Source of the DNA: Candidatus Microgenomatus sp.
Lineage (GTDB): Bacteria; Patescibacteriota; Minisyncoccia; UBA6257; GWB1-50-10
NCBI GenBank assembly: GCA_020724805.1
Contig: DYGI01000001.1
Coordinates: forward strand, 303,157-367,156
DNA: 64,000 nucleotides
Direction: 5' to 3'
The notes beneath the pieces were generated by a model. That model was not told where the DNA came from and made no database searches. It was given only the letters and a program-made list of their open reading frames with translations. Numbering within the stretch: position 1 is the first letter of the stretch; each line of letters begins with the position of its first letter. Positions 3,584 through 56,871 of the stretch are shown piece after piece. A program made the position numbers and the translations under genes.

Positions 3584-5331
3584 TGACGGGGAGCGACATT
3601 CGAAAAAAATTCCTGGATTATTTCAAAGAGAACGGCCACACGGTGGTGCGTTCTTCATCGCTTGTGCCGGACGACCCTTCGGTGCTTTTGACCACTGCGG
3701 GGATGCAGCAGTTCAAGCGGTACTATACCGGGGAGCTTGATGCGATGAAGGATTTCGGCGCGAAGAGCACCGCATCGGTGCAGAAGAGTTTTCGCACTTC
3801 CGACATTGACGAAGTGGGAGATGAGTCGCACCTCACATTCTTTGAAATGCTCGGGAATTTCTCGTTTGGCGGCTATTTCAAGGAAGAGGCAATCAAGTAC
3901 GGATATGAGTTCATCACGAAGGTGATGGGTCTCCCGATAGATTATGTTTCGGTGTTTGATCCCGAGCAGGTACGCGAGGGAGATTGGCGCAAGGGGGTGC
4001 CGCGCGACGACGAATCGCGCGCCATTTGGGAGAAGATTGGTGTGAAGGATATTCGCGCGGAGGGCGTGGATGTCTTTTGGGGTCCTACCGGGAGCGAAGG
4101 CCCGTGTGGCCCTACCACCGAGATTTATGTGAAGAGTGCCGAGGGAAAGAGCTTGGAGGTGTGGAACATCGTGTTCAACGAATTCTATCGTGATCCGGCG
4201 ATGAAACTGACAAAGCTCAAAACGCCGGGAGTAGACACGGGGATGGGACTCGAGCGTCTCGCGATGGTATCGCAGCGGACGCCAACCATCTTCGAGACGG
4301 ATCTGTTTGCGCCGCTCATGAAGCTTTTACCGGGGAATCTTTCCGAGCGTACGCGGCGCATTCTCGCCGACCACGTGCGCGGCATCGCATTCCTTCTTTC
4401 CGATGGGGTACGCCCGTCGAACAAAGAAGCGGGATACGTGCTTCGGCGCTTGATGCGCCGCTTGGTGACCCACCTCCATTTGGCAGGGAACCCCGTGGAC
4501 CCCGCGCATCTTTTTGCCGAGGTGAACGAGCACTACGAAAAATTCTATCCGGAGCTCAATGCCGAGATAATATTGGAGGAATGGAATGCCGAGCGCGCAC
4601 GATTTGAAAAAACGCTTTCGGTGGGACTCCGTGAGCTTTCGAAGATCGATTCGCTGGATGCGAAGGGCGCGTTCATGCTTTTTGAAAGCTGCGGGCTCCC
4701 GTACGAGGTCCTGAAAGAATTGGGCGGTACAAAAGCGTCGAAACTTGCGCGCGAGGAGTTTGATAAAGAGTTCGAAAAGCATCAGGAAATATCTCGCGCC
4801 GGTGCGGTGAAGAAATTCGGTGGTCATGGACTGATTTTGGACACGGGCGAGTTGAAGGCGGGGAGTGAAGAAGAGCTCAAAAAAGTAACGCGGCTCCACA
4901 CCGCAACTCACCTTCTTCAGCGTGCGCTTCGCGAAGTGCTGGGGTCTGAGGTCTCACAGAGAGGGTCCGATATCACACCCGAGCGCACTCGTTTTGACTT
5001 TTCGTTCCCGCGGAAAGTGGAGAAAGAGGAATTGCGACAGGTGGAGGAGTTGGTGAACGAAAAAATAAAAGAGGACCTCCCCGTGCAATTCAAGGAGATG
5101 CCGAAGGAAGAAGCGGAAAAGACCGGCGCGCTCTATTTCTTCAAGGAAAAATACCCCGATCGCGTGAAGGTCTACTTCGTGGGGCGCTCTCTTGAGAACG
5201 CATGGAGCAAAGAATTCTGTGGGGGTCCGCACGTCACCCATACGGGTGAGATCGGACGTGTGAAGATAGCAAAAGAAGAGGCGGTTGGCGCCGGTGTTCG
5301 CCGCATTCGCGCGACACTTGAAGCGGCATAA
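3583..5331 (+). CDS. alaS: Alanyl-tRNA synthetase, short form lacking the C-terminal C-Ala domain
   Basis: N-terminus [14 protein letters not shown]...TAGMQQFK and editing-domain HTATHLLQ motif; only 582 aa against roughly 870 in the typical enzyme. Confidence 0.85.
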   Translation: MTGSDIRKKFLDYFKENGHTVVRSSSLVPDDPSVLLTTAGMQQFKRYYTGELDAMKDFGAKSTASVQKSFRTSDIDEVGDESHLTFFEMLGNFSFGGYFKEEAIKYGYEFITKVMGLPIDYVSVFDPEQVREGDWRKGVPRDDESRAIWEKIGVKDIRAEGVDVFWGPTGSEGPCGPTTEIYVKSAEGKSLEVWNIVFNEFYRDPAMKLTKLKTPGVDTGMGLERLAMVSQRTPTIFETDLFAPLMKLLPGNLSERTRRILADHVRGIAFLLSDGVRPSNKEAGYVLRRLMRRLVTHLHLAGNPVDPAHLFAEVNEHYEKFYPELNAEIILEEWNAERARFEKTLSVGLRELSKIDSLDAKGAFMLFESCGLPYEVLKELGGTKASKLAREEFDKEFEKHQEISRAGAVKKFGGHGLILDTGELKAGSEEELKKVTRLHTATHLLQRALREVLGSEVSQRGSDITPERTRFDFSFPRKVEKEELRQVEELVNEKIKEDLPVQFKEMPKEEAEKTGALYFFKEKYPDRVKVYFVGRSLENAWSKEFCGGPHVTHTGEIGRVKIAKEEAVGAGVRRIRATLEAA

Positions 5332-13588: not shown

Positions 13589-13646
13589 TGTACGTTCGGC
13601 CTGTTGGCCTCAGTACTTCCTCACCTGCGTTTGTCAGTTTGTTTTG

Positions 13647-13717
13647 TCGGGCCGCCGGGAATTGAACCCGGTCTACATGCACCCCATGCATGCGTACTGC
13701 CGGTATACTACGGCCCG
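13647..13717 (-). tRNA. tRNA-Pro (anticodon GGG)
   Basis: Manual cloverleaf fold: acceptor CGGGCCG/CGGCCCG, D-arm GTAT/GTAC, anticodon stem CATGC/GCATG with loop AUGGGGU, T-arm CCGGG-TTCAATT-CCCGG, discriminator A; no encoded CCA. Confidence 0.85.
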
Positions 13718-13758
13718 TGAACGGAGCGAAAATATGCTAAAAGTATATTTTTGCGAAG

Positions 13759-13788
13759 TGAGCGGGACGCATGCGAAGCATACGGCCC
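13759..13788. repeat. 30-nt direct repeat, copy 1 (TGAGCGGGACGCATGCGAAGCATACGGCCC)
   Basis: Identical to 13819..13848; the 30-nt spacer contains the palindrome aatgatt-tacgc-aatcatt. Confidence 0.9.
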
Positions 13789-13818
13789 GAAATGATTTAC
13801 GCAATCATTCTTTCTGAA

Positions 13819-13848
13819 TGAGCGGGACGCATGCGAAGCATACGGCCC
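13819..13848. repeat. 30-nt direct repeat, copy 2
   Basis: Exact copy of 13759..13788. Confidence 0.9.
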
Positions 13849-25196: not shown

Positions 25197-25610
25197 ATGT
25201 TGCAACCAAAGAAACAAAAGTTCAGAAAGCAGCAGAAAGGACGTTCGCGCCGCCGCCTGGTGGAAACGCGCGGAGTAACGCTCGGGTATGGGCGCTACGG
25301 CCTCCAAGCAACATCCGCTTCGTGGGTAACGGCGAATCAGATCGAAGCGGCACGCAAAGCCATCAGTCATGAGCTCGCGAAGGAAGGGAAGATGTGGATT
25401 AGAATTTTCCCCGATAAACCAATTACAAAACTGCCGCCCGAGGTCACCTTGGGAGGTGGAAAAGGGGACGTGGACCACTACGTGTTTCCGGTAAAGCCCG
25501 GCCGCATGCTTTTTGAAGTGGATGGCGTCAAAGAGGAAACCGCGCGTGCGGCGTTGAAGCGTGCAGGATATAAACTTCCGGTTGGCACGCGGATTGTCGC
25601 GAAACAATAA
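25197..25610 (+). CDS. rplP: 50S ribosomal protein L16
   Basis: MLQPKKQKFRKQQKGR... Confidence 0.95.
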   Translation: MLQPKKQKFRKQQKGRSRRRLVETRGVTLGYGRYGLQATSASWVTANQIEAARKAISHELAKEGKMWIRIFPDKPITKLPPEVTLGGGKGDVDHYVFPVKPGRMLFEVDGVKEETARAALKRAGYKLPVGTRIVAKQ

Positions 25611-25618
25611 TCATATGA

Positions 25619-25739
25619 ATCCCGTTAGAAACAACTAAATTCTACAATCATGATTTACCGAAACAACAGCACAATATCTAGCACAAAGGTCTCGTGGCTC
25701 AACCACGGTCGTCTTGAGACGACCTGTCTCTAACGGGAT
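25619..25739. repeat. Palindromic structured leader element, copy A (121 bp; termini ATCCCGTTAGAAA...TCTCTAACGGGAT)
   Basis: Inverted termini shared with 34808..34883 and 45004..45079; two internal hairpins (cgtgg/ccacg and ggtcgtc/gacgacc); the right terminus overlaps the rpmC ATG. Confidence 0.8.
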
Positions 25740-25950
25740 GAAAAAGAAAGACCTCGCCAATCGCAAAGGAAAGAATGAAGCGGAGCTCACCAAAGAGATC
25801 CGCGAGCTTGAGAGTCGTAAAGAGGCTCTCCAGTTTGACTTGGCGGCGGGCAAAGTGAAGAATATACGCGAAATTCGGGACGTGAAAAAAAGCGTCGCAC
25901 AACTTCGAACGCTCCTCGGCGAGCGTGGTCGCCTAACGCCTAACACCTAA
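25738..25950 (+). CDS. rpmC: 50S ribosomal protein L29
   Basis: ELTKEIRELESRKEALQFDLAAGKVKN. Confidence 0.85.
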   Translation: MKKKDLANRKGKNEAELTKEIRELESRKEALQFDLAAGKVKNIREIRDVKKSVAQLRTLLGERGRLTPNT

Positions 25951-32662: not shown

Positions 32663-34809
32663 TTATGCGGATTATGATTCGCGCACGCTTTATTACTGCA
32701 CCGTTCGGGGATGGTCTTCGTGCCTTCCATCATTAAAGCGCCGCAAAGCGTACAGATATTTCCGGTGGGGCGGGATTTCATGATGAACTTACATTTCGGA
32801 TAATTGTTGCAGCTGAAGAACGGACCGAAGCGACCGCGGCGCTCTACGAGTTCACCGCCGTCCAAAAGACACTTCACGCCGGTGCCGTTCGCGCCATTCT
32901 CGCTCTGCTTTACGTATTTACACTTCGGATAGTTCGAGCACGCGATGAAGAGGCCAAAACGTCCCTCGCGCTCGATAAGCTTGCCGTCCTTACAGTCAGG
33001 GCACGCTTCCCCGATTTCTTTCGGCGGTTCCATGATGCTCCCGTCGGCTTTGCGCGCGCCGAGGCACTCGGGGAATCGCTTGCAGCTCAAAAATTTACCC
33101 GCGCGCCCGAGCTTTACCACCATCGGTCCTCCGCAAAGCGGACAGGTGTGCGCGGCGTCCGCCTCGCCCAAAGTGGTCGCTTTTTCGATTTTTTCCTTTG
33201 ATTTCACGTCTTTTTTGAAGGGCCCATAAAAATCCTTCAAGGTTTTCACATAGTCGCGTTTTCCGTTCGCGATCTCATCAAGGTCGTTTTCCATCTCCGC
33301 GGTGAAGGAGTCGCTGATGTAGTTCGGGAAATGGGTTTCCAAAAATCCAGAGACTACCTCACCGGTGTCGGTGGGCTTCAGGGATTTGCCGAGTTTTTCC
33401 ACATATCCGCGCTTCTGGAGCGTGGAGATGATGGAGGCATAAGTGGAAGGGCGGCCTATCTCACGCTTTTCAAGCTCCTTAATGAGCCCCGCTTCGGTGT
33501 AGCGTGGCGGAGGCTCTGTCTGTTTTTCCTCTTCGTGCATCTCTTTCAAAGTAAGAGGCTCGCCTTTCGTAACCTCGGGAAGTTCCACATCCTCACCGCG
33601 TGCGCGGGGGTCGGCGGCGAGCCATCCGGGAAATTGCACGATAGTTCCGGTCACGGAGAAGTCGGGAATTTTGGAATCCGCGATATTGGCCGTCACGGTA
33701 TTCCGGAGGAGTTTTGCGTCCGCCATCTGCGATGCGAGCGTACGTTCGCGTATCAAGGCATAGAGCTTCTTTTGTTCATCGTTTGCGCCGGCGCTTTTTT
33801 TCCGCGCATCCGTGGGCCGGATGGCCTCGTGGGCCTCCTGCGCGCTCTTGGAGCGTGTTATATAGGTGTGCGGTGAGACATATTGTTTTCCAAACTCTTT
33901 TTCAATCGTTCCGTATATCACGGGGAGCGCCTCGCGGCTCAAATTCACACTGTCGGTGCGCATGTAGGTAATGAGCCCCTGTTCGTAGAGTTTTTGGGCG
34001 ATGGACATCGTACGGTAGGGGGCGAACCCGAGGCGCGAGCTTGCGGATTGTTGGAGCGTGGAGGTGATGAAGGGCGGGCGCGCCGCGCGCTTTACCTCGG
34101 TTTGTTTCACGGCCGTGATTTTCCAAGAACCGGTCTTCGCGGCGCGGAGAATTTCATCGGCTTCCGCCCGATCACGCGGTTCTTTCGTGCACGTGAGTAC
34201 TATCGCTTTCTTCTTTTTGGTCAAAAATTCGCCGGAAATGACCCAGAACGTTTCTGGGACGAATGCCTGTATCTCACGCTCGCGCTCCACGAGAATGCGG
34301 AGCGAGGGGGATTGCACGCGGCCCGCGGAGAGCCCATAGCGCACTTTTTTCCATATGAGACCCGAAAGGTCGTAGCCGAAAAGCCGATCAAGTACTCTGC
34401 GCGCTTCCTGTGCTTTCACGAGGTGAGGGTCTACCGCGCGGGGATGTTCCATTGCTTCGCGCACGGCGGGTTCGGTGATTTCGTGGAAGACCACGCGTTT
34501 CGCTTTTGTGCCCGGATTCAAGAGTTCCATAATGTGCCAGGCAATAGCCTCGCCTTCGCGGTCGGGGTCGGTGGCAAGATAGACCGTGTCCGCTTTCTTC
34601 GCCAGCCTTGCGAGTTCTTTCACCACGTCGTCCTTGCCTTTCACTACCTCATAGTGGGGGACGAAACCGGCGGCGACATCTATCGCCGCCTTGTTGCTTT
34701 TAGGGAGGTCGCGCACGTGACCGACGCTCGCCTTGATGGTGAACGCCTTGTCTAAATACTTTGATATGGTTTTGGCCTTGGTTGGCGATTCGACAATGAC
34801 GAGATTCAT
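32650..34809 (-). CDS. topA: DNA topoisomerase I with four C-terminal zinc ribbons
   Basis: Toprim MNLVIVESPTKAKT, active-site region, repeated CxxC..CxxC ribbons. The start is taken at MNLVIV; the longer ORF reads through the palindromic element. Confidence 0.9.
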   Translation of the reverse strand: MNLVIVESPTKAKTISKYLDKAFTIKASVGHVRDLPKSNKAAIDVAAGFVPHYEVVKGKDDVVKELARLAKKADTVYLATDPDREGEAIAWHIMELLNPGTKAKRVVFHEITEPAVREAMEHPRAVDPHLVKAQEARRVLDRLFGYDLSGLIWKKVRYGLSAGRVQSPSLRILVEREREIQAFVPETFWVISGEFLTKKKKAIVLTCTKEPRDRAEADEILRAAKTGSWKITAVKQTEVKRAARPPFITSTLQQSASSRLGFAPYRTMSIAQKLYEQGLITYMRTDSVNLSREALPVIYGTIEKEFGKQYVSPHTYITRSKSAQEAHEAIRPTDARKKSAGANDEQKKLYALIRERTLASQMADAKLLRNTVTANIADSKIPDFSVTGTIVQFPGWLAADPRARGEDVELPEVTKGEPLTLKEMHEEEKQTEPPPRYTEAGLIKELEKREIGRPSTYASIISTLQKRGYVEKLGKSLKPTDTGEVVSGFLETHFPNYISDSFTAEMENDLDEIANGKRDYVKTLKDFYGPFKKDVKSKEKIEKATTLGEADAAHTCPLCGGPMVVKLGRAGKFLSCKRFPECLGARKADGSIMEPPKEIGEACPDCKDGKLIEREGRFGLFIACSNYPKCKYVKQSENGANGTGVKCLLDGGELVERRGRFGPFFSCNNYPKCKFIMKSRPTGNICTLCGALMMEGTKTIPERCSNKACANHNPHKIKK

Positions 34810-34883
34810 CCCGTTAGAAATCGCGCTCGCGGCAGAGCCGCGAGTCCCTCTGGGACCGCTGGCGCGGCTATTTCTAACGGGAT
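34808..34883. repeat. Palindromic structured leader element, copy B (76 bp; ATCCCGTTAGAAAT...ATTTCTAACGGGAT)
   Basis: Perfect 14-bp inverted termini; internal hairpins ctcgcgg/ccgcgag and gtccc/gggac; it exactly fills the dprA-stop to topA-start gap and overlaps the topA ATG. Confidence 0.85.
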
Positions 34884-35744
34884 TCATAAAATGGTGAATT
34901 TTCCTTTCGTTTCGCGCACGGCACCATCCAACGTGAGCTCGGTGAGTCGCGCAAGAACGATATTTGGTTCAAGTGTAGTGGCTTCCGCGATGGTGTCAAC
35001 GGAAAGCGGTTCTGTGGACGTCGCGAGCACCATGAGGATGGGGTCGTGGCTCGGAACGCGGGAAGTGGGCGTGTCCGCCATGACACGTGCGAGCACGGGG
35101 AGGTCTTCCATGAGGTCTGCCGCGTTCCTGATGAGGCGGGCTCCTTCGCGAATCAACATATGTGAGCCTTCGTAGTGAGGATGGCCAGCGGGGCCGGGAA
35201 GCACAAAGACCTCGCGTCCCTGGTCTGCCGCGTGGCGCGCGGTGGCCAAAGCGCCGGACGCAATGGGCGCTTCCACGATAACTACCCCGTCCGAAAGGCC
35301 AGAAATGATGCGATTTCTCTCAAGGAACTGATTCGGGTATGCGGGTGTGCCCGGAGGATATTCGGAAACGAGCGCACCGCGCTCTTCAATGCGACGTCCG
35401 AGGGATTCGTGCGAAGGAGGATAGATGGTGTCGATGCCACACCCAAGGACCGCAACGGTTTTTCCGTGCGCGTCCAAAGCTCCCTCGTGCGCTGCGGCGT
35501 CGATGCCGAGCGCGAGGCCAGAGACGATAACAATGCCGTGCCCCGCAAGGGTACGCGCAAGCATGCGCGCCATCTCGCGCCCTTCCCGGGTCGCTTTTCT
35601 GGTTCCTACTATGGCGATGGCAGGGATATGTTCGTGCGGGAGCGCGCCGCGTACAAAAAGTTGCGCCGGAGCGCCGGGAAGAGGCGCAAAACGCGCAGGA
35701 TACGAAGGATCTTTCCGTATGAGCGTGTGAATATGCGGCGCCAT
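34884..35744 (-). CDS. dprA: DNA processing protein A (Smf)
   Basis: Rossmann-like DprA core (GTRKATREG...GIDAAAH...GGTVAVLG); conserved smf-topA pairing. Confidence 0.8.
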   Translation of the reverse strand: MAPHIHTLIRKDPSYPARFAPLPGAPAQLFVRGALPHEHIPAIAIVGTRKATREGREMARMLARTLAGHGIVIVSGLALGIDAAAHEGALDAHGKTVAVLGCGIDTIYPPSHESLGRRIEERGALVSEYPPGTPAYPNQFLERNRIISGLSDGVVIVEAPIASGALATARHAADQGREVFVLPGPAGHPHYEGSHMLIREGARLIRNAADLMEDLPVLARVMADTPTSRVPSHDPILMVLATSTEPLSVDTIAEATTLEPNIVLARLTELTLDGAVRETKGKFTIL

Positions 35745-36605: not shown

Positions 36606-36677
36606 GGGCGCATAGTTCAGTGGTAGAACGCCATACTGATAATATGGAGGTCCTAGGTTCGATTCCTAGTGCGCCCA
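36606..36677 (+). tRNA. tRNA-Ile (anticodon GAT)
   Basis: Manual cloverleaf: GGGCGCA acceptor, anticodon loop CUGAUAA, T-loop TTCGATT. Confidence 0.85.
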
Positions 36678-36687
36678 CCGAAGCTTT

Positions 36688-36759
36688 GGGCCGTTAGCTC
36701 AGTGGTAGAGCACTTCATTTGCAATGAAGGGGTCACCGGTTCGAATCCGGTACGGTCCA
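36688..36759 (+). tRNA. tRNA-Ala (anticodon TGC)
   Basis: Manual cloverleaf with the G3:U70 identity pair, anticodon loop UUUGCAA, T-loop TTCGAAT. Confidence 0.85.
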
Positions 36760-36778
36760 CTGTATACAAGAAACAGAA

Positions 36779-44654: not shown

Positions 44655-44719
44655 ACCGAAAGGTGAGGGGCTCTTTTTTGTTTGGTGTTACATTTTACCC
44701 TTCTCGTTCGTATTACTTT

Positions 44720-44935
44720 ATGAAGACCATGAAACCATCGATATTAACCTTTGAAGCCAAGTCCGCCGCGGCCCCGCGGAGACGTTCCGCGAAGGCCGTG
44801 GGGTATGCGAGCTACTATACTCCGCGCCGGCGCGACGGCGGCATTATGTTCGCGTGGAGCGTTATTGGGTTTACCTCCACGCTCATCATGGTAGGAATCG
44901 CATTCTTCACGTATGCCTTTACCCACCTCCCGTAG
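44720..44935 (+). CDS. Hypothetical small membrane protein (71 aa)
   Basis: C-terminal TM helix; followed by terminator ggctccg-cacg-cggagcc plus a T-run. Confidence 0.3.
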   Translation: MKTMKPSILTFEAKSAAAPRRRSAKAVGYASYYTPRRRDGGIMFAWSVIGFTSTLIMVGIAFFTYAFTHLP

Positions 44936-45003
44936 CGCTCATTCGTCGCAAACCAGCGGCTCCGCACGCGGAGCCGTTTTAGGTTATGATGGAAAAGCAA
45001 TGG

Positions 45004-45079
45004 ACCCCGTTAGAAATCGCGCTCACGACGAAGTCGCGAGTCCTTCAAGGACCGCTGGCGCGGCTATTTCTAACGGGGT
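45004..45079. repeat. Palindromic structured leader element, copy C (76 bp; ACCCCGTTAGAAAT...ATTTCTAACGGGGT)
   Basis: Same architecture as copies A and B, with compensatory substitutions in both internal hairpins; the right terminus overlaps the GTG start of the ECF sigma gene. Confidence 0.85.
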
Positions 45080-45638
45080 GGAAGTAAGCGCCCTTGTTCG
45101 TGCTTTCAAGAAGGGAGACCGCAATGCGTTCGGCGGTATTTACGATGAGTATGCGGAGCGTATCTACCGCTTCTTTTTTTCGCGTACCGCAAACAAGGAA
45201 CTTTCCGAGGACCTCACGAGCGACACGTTTCGTAAAGCGCTTGAGCACCTCGCGGATTATAAGGAGGGGAAGGGAAGTCTTACCTCGTGGCTCTACACCA
45301 TCGCGCGCAATACGCTCACAGACCATTGGCGCACCGCGAAGGGAGATGCGCCGCTCGACGAAGCGCTTGAACTCGGGGCCTCCATTGATATGGCGGGCCA
45401 CGCGGACGCGAAAGAGCAATTGGCGAAAGTGAAAGCGTATCTCACAAAGCTTTCTGCGGACGAGCGTCAGGTGGTGCTCCTGCGGGTATGGGACGAGCTT
45501 TCCTACGCGGAAATCGCGGAAACCATGGGACGCACTGAGGGGTCGGCGAAGATGCTTTTCTCGCGCACGGTCCAGAAAATGAGGCGCGACCTTCCCTTTG
45601 CGGCCGTTATGCTTTTCCTCATCAATCGTATTCATTAA
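45078..45638 (+). CDS. ECF-type sigma-70 family factor (GTG start)
   Basis: Region 2 (IYDEYAERIYRFF...DLTSDTF) and region 4 HTH (LSYAEIAETMGRTEGSAKMLFSR). Confidence 0.8.
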   Translation: MEVSALVRAFKKGDRNAFGGIYDEYAERIYRFFFSRTANKELSEDLTSDTFRKALEHLADYKEGKGSLTSWLYTIARNTLTDHWRTAKGDAPLDEALELGASIDMAGHADAKEQLAKVKAYLTKLSADERQVVLLRVWDELSYAEIAETMGRTEGSAKMLFSRTVQKMRRDLPFAAVMLFLINRIH

Positions 45639-45644
45639 AGGATT

Positions 45645-47132
45645 ATGGACACGCGCATCAAAGAAATTTTGAAGGACCTTGCGGCGCTTGACCCTGCGTT
45701 CAAGGACGAACGCGCGGTGCGTCCGCTCGTGGAGCACCTCTTGGCGCTGGCTCCGCGCGGCGGGATGGACGATTCATTCAAGTCGCGTTTGCGGCGCGAG
45801 CTCATTGCGACCGCTTCGGCGCTTCCCTCGCGCCCAATGTCCGCGGCGCAGTTTTTCGCGTCGTGGGGGAATGTGGTCTATGCGGGCGCGGGCGCGCTCG
45901 CGGTGCTCCTCGTGCTCTTCGGCGTGTTCTACAGCCCGGGGCTTCTCGCTCCCTCGAGCGGCGTGAGCGTGGTAGCGGTTCGTGAGCGCGCGTTCGGCGA
46001 TCTTGCCACCCAAGGCGCTCTCGGCATGGGAGCCTCCGCAATGAAAGGCGGTGCGGAGAGTGCGCCGACGCCTGAAGGCGATATCGCGGTGCGGAGTGTG
46101 GCGCCTTCCATGGCGTTCGGTATGGGAGGCGGCACGGGCGCGGGAGGTCCCATCGATATGCCCTCGCCGCTCATTTATCCGGCGCCCGAGGTTCCGCGTA
46201 TCGATTTCGTATATCGCGGGGCGTTTCCTGAAATCGGGGACACGGTGGACGTGTTGCGGCGCGTGAAGCCCGAGGTGGCGGCGGGAGGCGCGGTCACCAC
46301 GCTTCGGCGTTTCGCGATGGGGCTTTTGGACCTCGGCGAATTTTCCGGTGCGCGCGTGGAATCGTTCGCGCTTTCTGAAAACGAGCCGTATGGTTACACG
46401 GTGTATGTGAATCCGGCGGAAGGTACGGTATCCATCGGCCAGAACTGGCGGCAGTGGCCGCAGTTCATCGATGGTCCCACGATGGGGGAAGGCATGGCGC
46501 TTCCGCCCGATGCGGAGCTCATCGCGCTTGCCGATGCATTTTTGGATGAATACGACATCGACCGGAACGGATATGGTGACCCGGTGGTTCAGAAGGCGTG
46601 GAGTATGGACCCTCTTGCGCTCGAGAAGTCCATCATGCCGGCATACGTTCAGGAAGTGCCTATCATTTACCCGTATCTTGTGAACGGCGAACCCATCTTT
46701 GACGAAGGCGGGAATCCCACCGGACTTTATGTCGGTGTGAATGTGAAAGAAAAGCGCGTGTCGAACGTGTCGGGCCTCATGACGCGTCGATACGAATCGT
46801 CCGCGTACGCGGCGGAGCGCGACGTTGAGCGGCTCTTGGGATACGCGGAAGGCCGCTATTGGTATGGTGAGGGCGCGCGCACGGTTACGGTGGAGGTGGA
46901 TGCGCCGACCAAGGGGTATGTGACGACGTGGACGTGGAATGGGAGCGAAGGGTCGGAAGTGGTGGTGCCCGCGCTCATTTTCCCGATACCGGAAAATCTC
47001 AATATTCCCAATATGTATTTCCCGAAAAACCTGGTGGTGCCGCTTGCAAAGGAACTTATCGACCGAAATATGGGTGGCCCTATCCGCATCATGTCCGACT
47101 CGATAGAAGTGATGTCTCCGCCGAGCCAATAG
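45645..47132 (+). CDS. Putative anti-sigma factor (cytoplasmic N-terminal domain, one TM helix, large extracytoplasmic domain)
   Basis: Immediately downstream of the ECF sigma gene; topology typical of anti-sigma factors; no recognised catalytic motif. Confidence 0.45.
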   Translation: MDTRIKEILKDLAALDPAFKDERAVRPLVEHLLALAPRGGMDDSFKSRLRRELIATASALPSRPMSAAQFFASWGNVVYAGAGALAVLLVLFGVFYSPGLLAPSSGVSVVAVRERAFGDLATQGALGMGASAMKGGAESAPTPEGDIAVRSVAPSMAFGMGGGTGAGGPIDMPSPLIYPAPEVPRIDFVYRGAFPEIGDTVDVLRRVKPEVAAGGAVTTLRRFAMGLLDLGEFSGARVESFALSENEPYGYTVYVNPAEGTVSIGQNWRQWPQFIDGPTMGEGMALPPDAELIALADAFLDEYDIDRNGYGDPVVQKAWSMDPLALEKSIMPAYVQEVPIIYPYLVNGEPIFDEGGNPTGLYVGVNVKEKRVSNVSGLMTRRYESSAYAAERDVERLLGYAEGRYWYGEGARTVTVEVDAPTKGYVTTWTWNGSEGSEVVVPALIFPIPENLNIPNMYFPKNLVVPLAKELIDRNMGGPIRIMSDSIEVMSPPSQ

Positions 47133-54631: not shown

Positions 54632-54991
54632 ATGGCCTGGCACCATTATTTTAAAAAGTTTTACAGAAAGAAGATTGGTCAGACGCCTCACTCCCGACGC
54701 CTATGGGCCGCTCTTAAAGAGCGTGGAATAGATTCCGAAACCGAGTATTTCGATGGTCACAAGCATGTTGATATCGCCATTCGTAGTGCTCGTATCTATA
54801 TTGAGGTAGATGGTATCCAGCATTTTACTAACCCAGAGCAAATCATGAGAGATTTCAAGCGGAGCCATTATTCTGATGGTGACGACTTTAGCACTTTCTA
54901 CGTAACCAACCAGATCATTGAAACGCACTTGAACGAAGTTGCAGACGCTATCGCTAAAGTTGTGGAAATGAAACTTAACCCCTCCCCATGA
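54632..54991 (+). CDS. DUF559-family (Vsr/MutH-like endonuclease fold) protein
   Basis: HVDIAIRSARIYIEVDGIQHFTNPEQIMRD...GDDFSTFYVTNQI matches the DUF559 pattern (VDF...IELDGxQH...PEQ...D). Confidence 0.6.
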   Translation: MAWHHYFKKFYRKKIGQTPHSRRLWAALKERGIDSETEYFDGHKHVDIAIRSARIYIEVDGIQHFTNPEQIMRDFKRSHYSDGDDFSTFYVTNQIIETHLNEVADAIAKVVEMKLNPSP

Positions 54992-55033
54992 CCCTCCAAA
55001 ATCTTTCATTACTCGTAATGGCCATCGCGGTGG
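54983..55033. repeat. 51-nt perfect direct repeat, copy 1 (covers the start of the gene at 54988)
   Basis: TCCCCATGACCCTCCAAAATCTTTCATTACTCGTAATGGCCATCGCGGTGG, identical to 56821..56871. Confidence 0.95.
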
Positions 55034-56818: not shown

Positions 56819-56820
56819 AC

Positions 56821-56871
56821 TCCCCATGACCCTCCAAAATCTTTCATTACTCGTAATGGCCATCGCGGTGG
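56821..56871. repeat. 51-nt perfect direct repeat, copy 2 (encodes a truncated 26-aa duplicate of the N-terminus of the gene at 54988)
   Basis: Exact copy of 54983..55033; the ORF ATGACCCTCC... terminates after 26 codons at 56906. Confidence 0.95.

Follow-up and report, generated by a model that had tools for sequence, protein, structure and literature searches.

We analyzed a 64,000-nucleotide stretch of DNA from Candidatus Microgenomatus sp. (contig DYGI01000001.1, positions 303,157 to 367,156; hereafter the window), and in particular the palindromic sequence at positions 45004-45079, which lies at the start of a gene for an extracytoplasmic function (ECF)-type sigma factor. This sequence, designated copy C, is one of three palindromes in the window with the same termini, and is very probably a non-autonomous mobile palindromic element that inserted here rather than a leader evolved to regulate the sigma gene. 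It resembles a transposable element of the miniature inverted-repeat type (MITE) in structure, with defined terminal repeats, a target duplication, many dispersed small non-coding copies, and empty sites, and it resembles the Rickettsia palindromic elements (RPEs) in behavior. Copy C is most likely selfish DNA that is either translated as an N-terminal extension of the sigma factor or acts as an incidental 5′ hairpin.

On the plus strand, 45004-45079 is predicted to fold into one long hairpin (-40.7 kcal/mol, z -5.65), and 0 of 200 shuffled sequences were as stable. The minus strand folds equally well (-41.6 kcal/mol, z -5.73). The letters of this interval read A-C-CCCGTTAGAAAT…ATTTCTAACGGG-G-T. 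Repeat finding, pattern search, and folding delimit an element of 74 nt on the plus strand (45005..45078), bounded by the left terminal repeat C-CCCGTTAGAAAT (45005-45017) and the right terminal repeat ATTTCTAACGGG-G (45066-45078). The stem is a perfect 14 bp that resumes past a 3-nt bulge; the interior holds a second stem, CGCGC/GCGCG, with the 3-nt GCT bulge on its 3′ side, and two small internal hairpins. The insertion point is 5 nt into the open reading frame (ORF) of the sigma factor, between its fifth and sixth base, and the layout of the locus is ATGGA[C-CCCG…CGGG-G]TGGAAG. The target sequence TGGA is present in two copies, at 45001-45004 and 45079-45082. The original ATG (45000-45002), which is the start of the public gene call P0001, lies four bases 5′ of the hairpin base, so the hairpin begins at +5 relative to this codon. 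On the other side, the terminal G of the element and the TG of the second duplicate form a regenerated GTG (45078-45080) in frame with the ATG, and the first G of this GTG is paired within the hairpin stem.

The same sites are uninterrupted in relatives. In sigma orthologs with 80-88% identity, ATGGAA is continuous and no element is present. The N-termini of the orthologs P0002-P0007 read …GAMETSAL…, ortholog N-termini also show …GAMETSALIRAF, and the closest sigma homologues show …GAMETSALIRAFKKGD, compared with …GKAM-[DPVRN…ISNGV]-EVSALVRAFKKGD in the window. At the DNA level, the orthologous locus L121 reads gcgctATGGAAACGAGC across the site, with both gcgctATGGAAACG and ATGGAA uninterrupted. 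As for topoisomerase TopA, whose gene carries a further copy, 119 of the 120 closest homologues start with M-x-L-[VI]-IVESP and have no 26-aa extension; the window TopA (745 aa) alone among them has MNPVRNSRASGPRGTRGSAASAISNG in front. The nearest named TopA homologues, from Candidatus Brennerbacteria, are 88% identical and 718 aa long. These results indicate that the window elements are lineage-specific insertions.

The two-arm terminal pattern was found in three elements in the 64-kb window, compared with 0 expected by chance, and a search with 2 mismatches per arm gave no additional copies within the window. Copy B is a 74-nt element on the minus strand at the start of topA (34809-34882; region 34805..34887), and its core (34810-34881) is 89% identical to the core of copy C (45006-45077). 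On the topA strand, the locus reads ATGAA[T-core-A]TGAATCTC, and the two copies of the TGAA duplication occupy 34886-34883 and 34808-34805. The TGA stop codon of dprA overlaps the upstream ATG (34887-34885), and the downstream ATG is located at 34809-34807. Pfam analysis identified DprA as the product of the upstream gene and a Toprim domain starting at residue 29 (Toprim position 2) of the 745-aa ORF. Copy A is a 119-nt element on the plus strand (25620-25738; region 25615..25742) between rplP, which ends with a stop codon at 25608-25610, and rpmC; the neighboring products matched Ribosomal_L16 and Ribosomal_L29 in Pfam. Its layout is ATGAA[T-core-A]TGAAAAAG, with an upstream ATG at 25615-25617, the duplication TGAA at 25616-25619 and 25739-25742, and a regenerated ATG at 25738-25740. 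The frame of the upstream ATG reaches a TAA after 7 codons. The 117-nt core of copy A (25621-25737) has only the termini and the 3′ “CCT” sub-terminal hairpin in common with copies B and C. A direct repeat containing the start codon thus brackets every window copy, with TGGA duplicated at copy C and TGAA at copies A and B. Relative to the genes that they precede, copies B and C are oppositely oriented, which makes the RNA of one the reverse complement of the other. An asymmetric right end is present in all three copies, forward in A and C and reverse in B.

We also surveyed the family across genomes. The scan covered one genome per species and required exact 9-nt termini, and the proportions given below are therefore approximate; they refer to the matches listed. 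Copies with exact termini were found at no fewer than 120 genome loci, i.e., at least 120. About three-quarters of the hosts are Patescibacteria (Saccharibacteria, Kaiser-, Nomura-, Kerfeld-, and Jorgensenbacteria, Paceibacterota, and others), and the remainder are Omnitrophota, Desulfobacterota, Planctomycetota, and other metagenome-assembled genomes (MAGs). The copies are 30-129 nt long, and their interiors have no sequence relation to one another. The family termini are Y-CCCGTTAGANNN … NNNTCTAACGGG-R, 13 bp in length. The terminal stem is exactly 12 bp in 77/142 copies; stem positions 10-12 vary yet form Watson-Crick pairs in 88-94% of cases, compared with 37-51% after shuffling, and in-register pairing ends at position 13. 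Just outside CCCG/CGGG there is a Y on the left and an R on the right, and in 95% of copies these two bases are complementary. The adjoining 4 nt form a direct duplication with the consensus T-N-N-A (71-79% identity per position in 138 copies). With the Y:R pair included, the terminal inverted repeats are thus 13 bp long, and the target duplication is 4 bp. A duplication of 6 bp was rejected, as its outer positions are identical in just 51% and 43% of copies yet complementary in 95%. One subclass has the asymmetric right end …CCT-R-NN-TCTAACGGG, and 5′ of it there is usually a small GG…CC hairpin or a CGCGG/CCGCG stem. In addition, tandem arrays of two or three elements were detected at L052:5899-6278, L058:7674-7895, and L043:2943-3104, where only the regenerated 6-mer (ATGAAT, ATTCAT, and GCTCAC in these arrays) separates the elements. 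These arrays point to repeated insertion into the same target and to a target preference stronger than TNNA. When the strict pattern of the subfamily containing copies B and C was run on a metagenome collection, a single locus (L125) matched, and a scan of viral contigs gave 16 heterogeneous matches.

Some copies of the family show further features. In ~15% of the copies, CYTGY, e.g., ACTTGT, replaces the upstream duplicate (including L057:6895, L091:681, L097:16, L099, L116:3303, L018, and L040); this sequence can pair with the downstream AUGAA via G·U pairs, lengthening the stem over the start codon. At L035, two 92-nt copies lie within a ~250-nt inverted repeat (2100-2340 and 4860-5100) that brackets a gene for a 686-aa secreted protein. 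The flanks of this repeat recur in L025 and L075, indicating that the hairpin is embedded there in a larger repeat unit. In a Saccharibacteria MAG (L110:4972-5128), a complete tRNA-Thr(CGT) gene (4981-5052) lies exactly between CCCGTTAGA and TCTAACGGG; a 5′-truncated tRNA-like sequence follows, with TCTAACGGG once more at its end. At this locus, the acceptor stem would be extended by the terminal repeats, and the arrangement could represent a tRNA cargo, a processing stem, or an origin of the element.

The family is closely associated with start codons. An ATG or GTG that opens an ORF of at least 60 aa adjoins 63/138 copies, and this codon combines the element's terminal purine with the duplicated TG. 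After in silico deletion of the element together with one duplicate, no in-frame start preceded this codon in its ORF in 76% of cases, and the median number of open codons upstream was 8; the corresponding values for random RTGNAY sites were 17% and 87 open codons (Fisher p=3.5e-23). The association was found in 49/92 copies (53%) from named Patescibacteria and in 4/33 copies (12%) from other phyla. In the other phyla, TAAA duplications dominate, and several copies lie on TAA stop codons. About 10 copies split an ATGA stop/start overlap, as at dprA-topA. The genes behind the start-associated copies are diverse: 54/63 such copies precede a gene that occurs once in the set, and the recurring targets are topA (3 copies) and three other families (2 each). 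The strength of this association may reflect selection or target preference, between which it is ambiguous. In 14/51 copies, the upstream ATG follows the end of a -10-like hexamer by 6-9 nt, compared with 81/752 control ORF starts, and many of the targets thus look leaderless. Among the control ORFs of the same loci, the spacing of -10-like boxes also peaks at 6 nt. From the spacing at both targets and control ORFs, leaderless mRNAs seem to be common in these Patescibacteria. With regard to topA, one further homologue (P0121, from the genome holding L092) begins with MRDILRPRPISYG-MKLLIVESP, in which “ISYG” resembles a degenerate …ISNG element end. The topA start may therefore have been hit independently in at least four lineages (the window, L002, L038, and the L092 genome).

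Next, we examined whether the element can be translated. From ATG 45000 to GTG 45078 there are 78 nt, i.e., 26 codons in the same frame without a stop (MDPVRNRAHDEVASPSRTAGAAISNG-VEVSAL…), corresponding to the 72-nt core of the subfamily plus the duplication. Copy B is likewise open in frame and gives a 26-aa TopA extension, so that both copies are open despite their opposite orientations. The third member of this 69-72-nt subfamily is the sister copy at L125, a contig from Hainich groundwater, where the element lies inside a UDP-GlcNAc 2-epimerase gene between the flanks ATTTAC/GTTTAC. The insert adds 25 residues (PVRNRASAFGGSPKDRGAAISNG and the duplicated VY) and keeps the frame, and the Pfam domain spans it. 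Compared with Escherichia coli WecB (1f6d), the insert has no counterpart, and the alignment resumes exactly where it broke off. The subfamily is therefore stop-free and in frame in 3/3 members. Other copies traversed by an ORF, with lengths that are multiples of three, are L009:2403, L050:2808, and L089:2207. In-frame translatability was rejected as a rule for the family as a whole, since multiples of three are not overrepresented among the lengths, and a stop within the element closes most upstream frames.

The surroundings of copy C agree in several respects with the initial annotation. Upstream, on the plus strand, a terminator-like GC-rich hairpin with a U-tract (44955..44980) lies 3′ of a 90-aa ORF (44663-44935); the hairpin at 44955-44978 followed by UUUUAGGUU has a predicted stability of -21.1 kcal/mol (z -4.65), and a scan for consensus terminators did not include it among its calls. 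The -10-like hexamer TATGAT (44985..44990, plus strand) ends 9 nt ahead of ATG 45000, and TACGAT is found at this same distance from the ATG of the orthologous locus L121, so that both match the leaderless-spacing pattern of the family. A simple scan for sigma-70 consensus promoters gave no promoter and no -35 element at the copy C locus. The sigma ORF as now read (45000..45638, plus strand) encodes 212 aa, the first 26 of which derive from the duplication and the element, and the equivalent of the native protein (45078-45638, plus strand) has 186 aa. Pfam analysis of this ORF identified Sigma70_r2 (residues 47-114), Sigma70_r4_2, and Sigma70_ECF. The stable structured element, the terminator-like hairpin and -10-like box upstream of it, and the ECF sigma gene at GTG 45078 downstream, all described in the initial annotation, were thus confirmed. 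Public gene calls give the sigma factor 212 aa (from ATG 45000) or 241 aa (from ATG 44913) and never use GTG 45078, which has no Shine-Dalgarno-like sequence at a usable distance. The downstream ORF of 495 aa (45645..47132, plus strand) is conserved 3′ of the sigma gene in L121; it had no match in a Pfam search, and its topology consists of an N-terminal ~75 aa followed by one hydrophobic helix. Judging from this topology, it is possibly a single-pass membrane anti-sigma factor, an assignment that is a guess.

These features suggest the following course of events at the sigma gene. The element entered at ATGGA^AG, leaving the original ATG 45000 upstream and rebuilding GTG 45078. TATGAT would serve as the promoter of a leaderless or near-leaderless sigma mRNA, with transcription starting at this box, close to the ATG; the spacing of TACGAT in L121 and the family-wide -10-like boxes 6-9 nt before ATG make a transcript start just ahead of the element plausible. 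Translation would then start at the original, probably 5′-proximal ATG and read through the element to give a 26-residue N-terminal extension of the sigma factor, to which we assign slightly better than even chances. Such read-through would yield MDPVRN…, TAGAAISNGVEVSALVR, and MDPVRNRAHDEVASPSR peptides, and the junction …SAISNGMNLVIVESPTK in TopA. Alternatively, with a smaller but still considerable probability, initiation may occur at the regenerated GTG, giving (M/V)EVSALVR…, and the hairpin would be an incidental 5′ untranslated region (UTR). With either start, the -40 kcal/mol hairpin would act as a constant handicap for initiation, or as protection of the 5′ end, and not as a conditional control. 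The hairpin, which begins four bases past the ATG and has the first G of the GTG in its stem, is expected to reduce initiation.

We compared the element with known systems. RPEs insert in frame into unrelated protein-coding genes (Ogata et al. 2000, summarised in PMC10969869). Like the copies described here, they are small gene-less palindromes that lie in frame in unrelated genes and are read as peptide segments; the RPE-like cases in our data are the sigma factor and TopA (26 aa each) and the L125 epimerase (25 aa), as well as L009:2403 and L050:2808. RPEs differ in sequence, hosts, and length (about 100-150 nt versus 30-129 nt here), and, unlike RPEs, this family has sharply defined 13-bp termini, a 4-bp TNNA duplication, and most of its copies on start codons. 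The likeness appears to be one of behavior, in that the 69-72-nt subfamily alone works like an RPE, and no homology is claimed. The Correia elements (CREE/NEMIS) of Neisseria are also hairpin-forming MITEs of about 100 nt near gene starts; they are co-transcribed and can alter the expression of adjacent genes (PMC2649163, PMC2229807). They have 26-bp terminal repeats, a TA duplication, an IHF site, and promoter halves, are confined to Neisseria, and do not rebuild start codons, whereas the present family has 13-bp repeats, a TNNA duplication, and Patescibacteria as host. Correia identity was therefore rejected. In end structure only, the family may be likened to piggyBac and its prokaryotic relatives of the IS1380 family, which have ~13-16-bp repeats beginning with CCC, a 4-bp T..A-type duplication, and asymmetric sub-termini. 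The duplication is 4-5 bp in IS1380 and TTAA, with the variants TAAA, TCAA, and TATG, in piggyBac, whose excision is precise (PMC10813416, PMC7351741, PMC3281130). If excision were likewise precise here, start-codon insertions would be reversible. The palindromic element family differs from this type in having an extra Y:R pair outside CCC and a free target middle (TNNA), and the resemblance is only a lead, given the absence of a transposase from the fetched loci.

Structured 5′ UTR regulators (riboswitches, RNA thermometers, and leader hairpins) share with the element a stable hairpin at the start codon that possibly makes up most of the 5′ UTR. Unlike such regulators, the element is not conserved in orthologous leaders, occurs in both orientations, and has a variable interior, target duplications, and no Rfam match. 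Rfam 15 at the gathering threshold gave only three tRNAs in the 64-kb window, and E-value mode (E<=10) on copies C and A gave chance-level or no matches; a known RNA family was rejected on the basis of both searches. In integron attC sites, the boxes are ordered R″(RYYYAAC) … R′(GTTRRRY) on one strand, and the sites lie in cassette arrays. Here, the 5′ arm carries GTTAGAA and the 3′ arm TTCTAAC, which is the wrong box order on both strands, and the neighbors are core genes (rplP, topA, and the sigma gene); attC identity was rejected. IS200/IS605-type and REP/RAYT hairpins were rejected on the grounds that both flanks match, as in a true duplication, that the termini are symmetric, and that no GTAG-type guide is present. 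A small intron or bulge-helix-bulge excision was rejected because the stem foot is perfectly paired without bulges and the 30-nt minimal copies are plain hairpins. Full-text literature searches, including the terminal sequence, found no description of the family, and neither Patescibacteria nor insertion at start codons comes up in a review of prokaryotic MITEs from 2024.

The initial annotation had suggested that the element makes up the entire 5′ UTR of an ECF sigma/anti-sigma operon and serves as a device for its conditional (stress-dependent) post-transcriptional control, reused on a ribosomal-protein gene and on topA. We consider a dedicated cis-regulator of this kind very improbable. The very stable hairpin directly after the -10-like box, the pairing of the first base of the GTG in the stem, and internal hairpins kept by compensatory changes are what such a regulator would have, but the element is missing from sigma orthologs with 80-88% identity and from 119/120 TopA homologues, target-site duplications flank it, and copies of the family precede dozens of unrelated genes and are also located within coding sequence. 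Control evolved for the sigma gene is thereby largely refuted. Copies are indeed present at rpmC and topA, but the inversion of copy B relative to copy C, and the fact that copy A shares only the termini, argue against one deliberate device. The proposal of an element-long 5′ UTR fares better with regard to the transcript start just before the element, which is plausible; it overlooked the in-frame, open ATG 45000, which, together with the lack of an Rfam match, also counts against a regulator. The same ATG bears on a mobile element with initiation at GTG 45078, in which the element would be the entire incidental 5′ UTR of a transcript from near 44997, a constitutive 5′ hairpin that shields the mRNA and/or throttles initiation, and the 5′-terminal ATG would be silent or feed the same frame. 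This explanation appears rather unlikely as a whole. It is favored by the terminal purine of the element, which always rebuilds ATG or GTG, by the -10-like box 9 nt before ATG 45000, and by the start-associated copies that keep an upstream start, where the upstream frame is closed in 49/51 and the downstream start must work. Against it, the GTG lacks a Shine-Dalgarno-like sequence at a usable distance and has its G paired in the stem, gene callers favor the upstream starts, and ribosomes from the open, in-frame ATG 45000 would not terminate.

Several observations weigh against selfish DNA that is translated from the original ATG. Among the 51 copies that keep an upstream start, in-frame fusion occurs in only 2, both in this window; given this rarity, most family members must use the regenerated downstream start, and copy C may possibly do so too. 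Of the stopped frames, 11 end at the TAA of the terminal repeat, 4 nt before the new start, 4 end at a TGA overlapping the new start, and the others end earlier, most of them in the AT-rich interior. The inner hairpins of copies B, C, and L125 carry five compensatory double substitutions (CTCGCGGC/GCCGCGAG, CTCACGAC/GTCGCGAG, and CTTCCGCC/GGCGGAAG; GTCCC/GGGAC versus GTCCT/AGGAC), which indicates that the palindromic structure itself is maintained and suggests a constraint beyond selfish DNA. These changes were read directly from the sequences, because a MAFFT-based consensus fold of six short copies was poor, the alignment ignoring structure. Elements with the asymmetric motif have one orientation toward the downstream gene in 26/31 cases; this 26:5 bias may reflect selection for function or, equally, asymmetric ends meeting an asymmetric target. 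Finally, ~1 Mb of fetched loci yielded neither a transposase nor an autonomous element with these termini; in these loci, termini were paired over distances of up to 5 kb and every ORF of 200 aa or more was clustered, which gave housekeeping families only. We therefore infer mobility from structure and empty sites only, and the approximate proportions of the family scan call for the same caution.

Some of these observations would also fit a start-codon module, domesticated or mutualistic, that serves leaderless or tightly coupled genes of the candidate phyla radiation (CPR), with copy C as a working member, which we regard as improbable, more so than the GTG start. The module would supply a 5′ protective hairpin and re-initiation signals, namely the TAA 4 nt before the new start and the overlapping TGA. 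In line with this, a stop provided by the terminal repeat or the duplication closes 15/51 upstream frames no more than 4 nt from the downstream start; the excess of start-codon copies in Patescibacteria, the orientation bias, the enrichment of -10-like boxes at leaderless spacing, and the covariation in the stem point the same way. However, purifying selection acting on an RTNNAY-preferring transposon could look alike, other insertions being lethal in dense genomes, and the stops beside the new start, like the start-codon association, may stem from selection or from target preference. Moreover, the asymmetric ends may explain the orientation bias, most upstream frames stop early in the AT-rich interior, and close relatives thrive without the element. 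The lowest probability of all is given to a hairpin that is removed or skipped after transcription, by RNase III-type processing or by translational bypass between the duplicated codons, leaving no lasting extension or UTR. The perfect 14-bp stem, continued past the 3-nt bulge, nears RNase III substrates in length, the codons on either side of the element are identical (ATG-GAx … xTG-GAA), and at L110 the tRNA-Thr gene lies exactly between two terminal repeats; stems flanking a tRNA are usually sites of processing. RNase III binds or cleaves the Correia elements (PMC2649163). On the other hand, 3/3 members of the 69-72-nt subfamily, one of them intragenic, are in frame and stop-free, which is needed for translation and not for removal.

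Three features elsewhere in the window were also recorded. The genes for tRNA-Ile(GAT) and tRNA-Ala(TGC) are adjacent at 36606-36760; the usual place of this pair is the 16S-23S spacer, and no rRNA was found across the 64 kb of the window. An exact direct repeat of 52 nt (CTCCCCATGACCCTCC…), unrelated to the palindromic element, occurs at 54982-55033 and 56820-56871, 1.8 kb apart. In addition, two 42-nt repeats with 88% identity, 60 nt apart (13747-13848), adjoin tRNA-Pro (13646-13717).

For the sigma, TopA, and L29 genes of this organism, annotation of a regulatory leader is unwarranted, and two of them probably have either a 26-residue element-derived N-terminal extension or a handicapped start. 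Start-codon annotation near such elements is unreliable, as seen in the public calls of 212 aa versus 241 aa. The family appears to be undescribed, with the unusual habit of inserting on start codons and rebuilding them. Tentatively, and short of even confidence, we take it to be a cross-phylum family of hairpin MITEs, which in Patescibacteria lies mainly on starts that are often leaderless or ATGA-overlapped and repairs the damage by its terminal purine. With the TAA 4 nt before the new start and the overlapping TGA, ribosomes from the old start would be delivered in frame or released beside the new one. The family, which is widespread in gene-dense uncultivated bacteria, illustrates that a transposon can survive in them through insertion at start or stop codons with rebuilding, or through translatability. 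The copies mark many apparently leaderless genes and would provide natural “hairpin at +5” experiments on leaderless translation, and their presence or absence could serve as strain markers. If the habit reflects active targeting, e.g., of an open promoter or initiation region, or domestication as a mobile 5′ hairpin and coupling module, it would represent a new lifestyle for selfish DNA in gene-dense genomes, and the element would be a genome-wide modifier of translation initiation in CPR bacteria.

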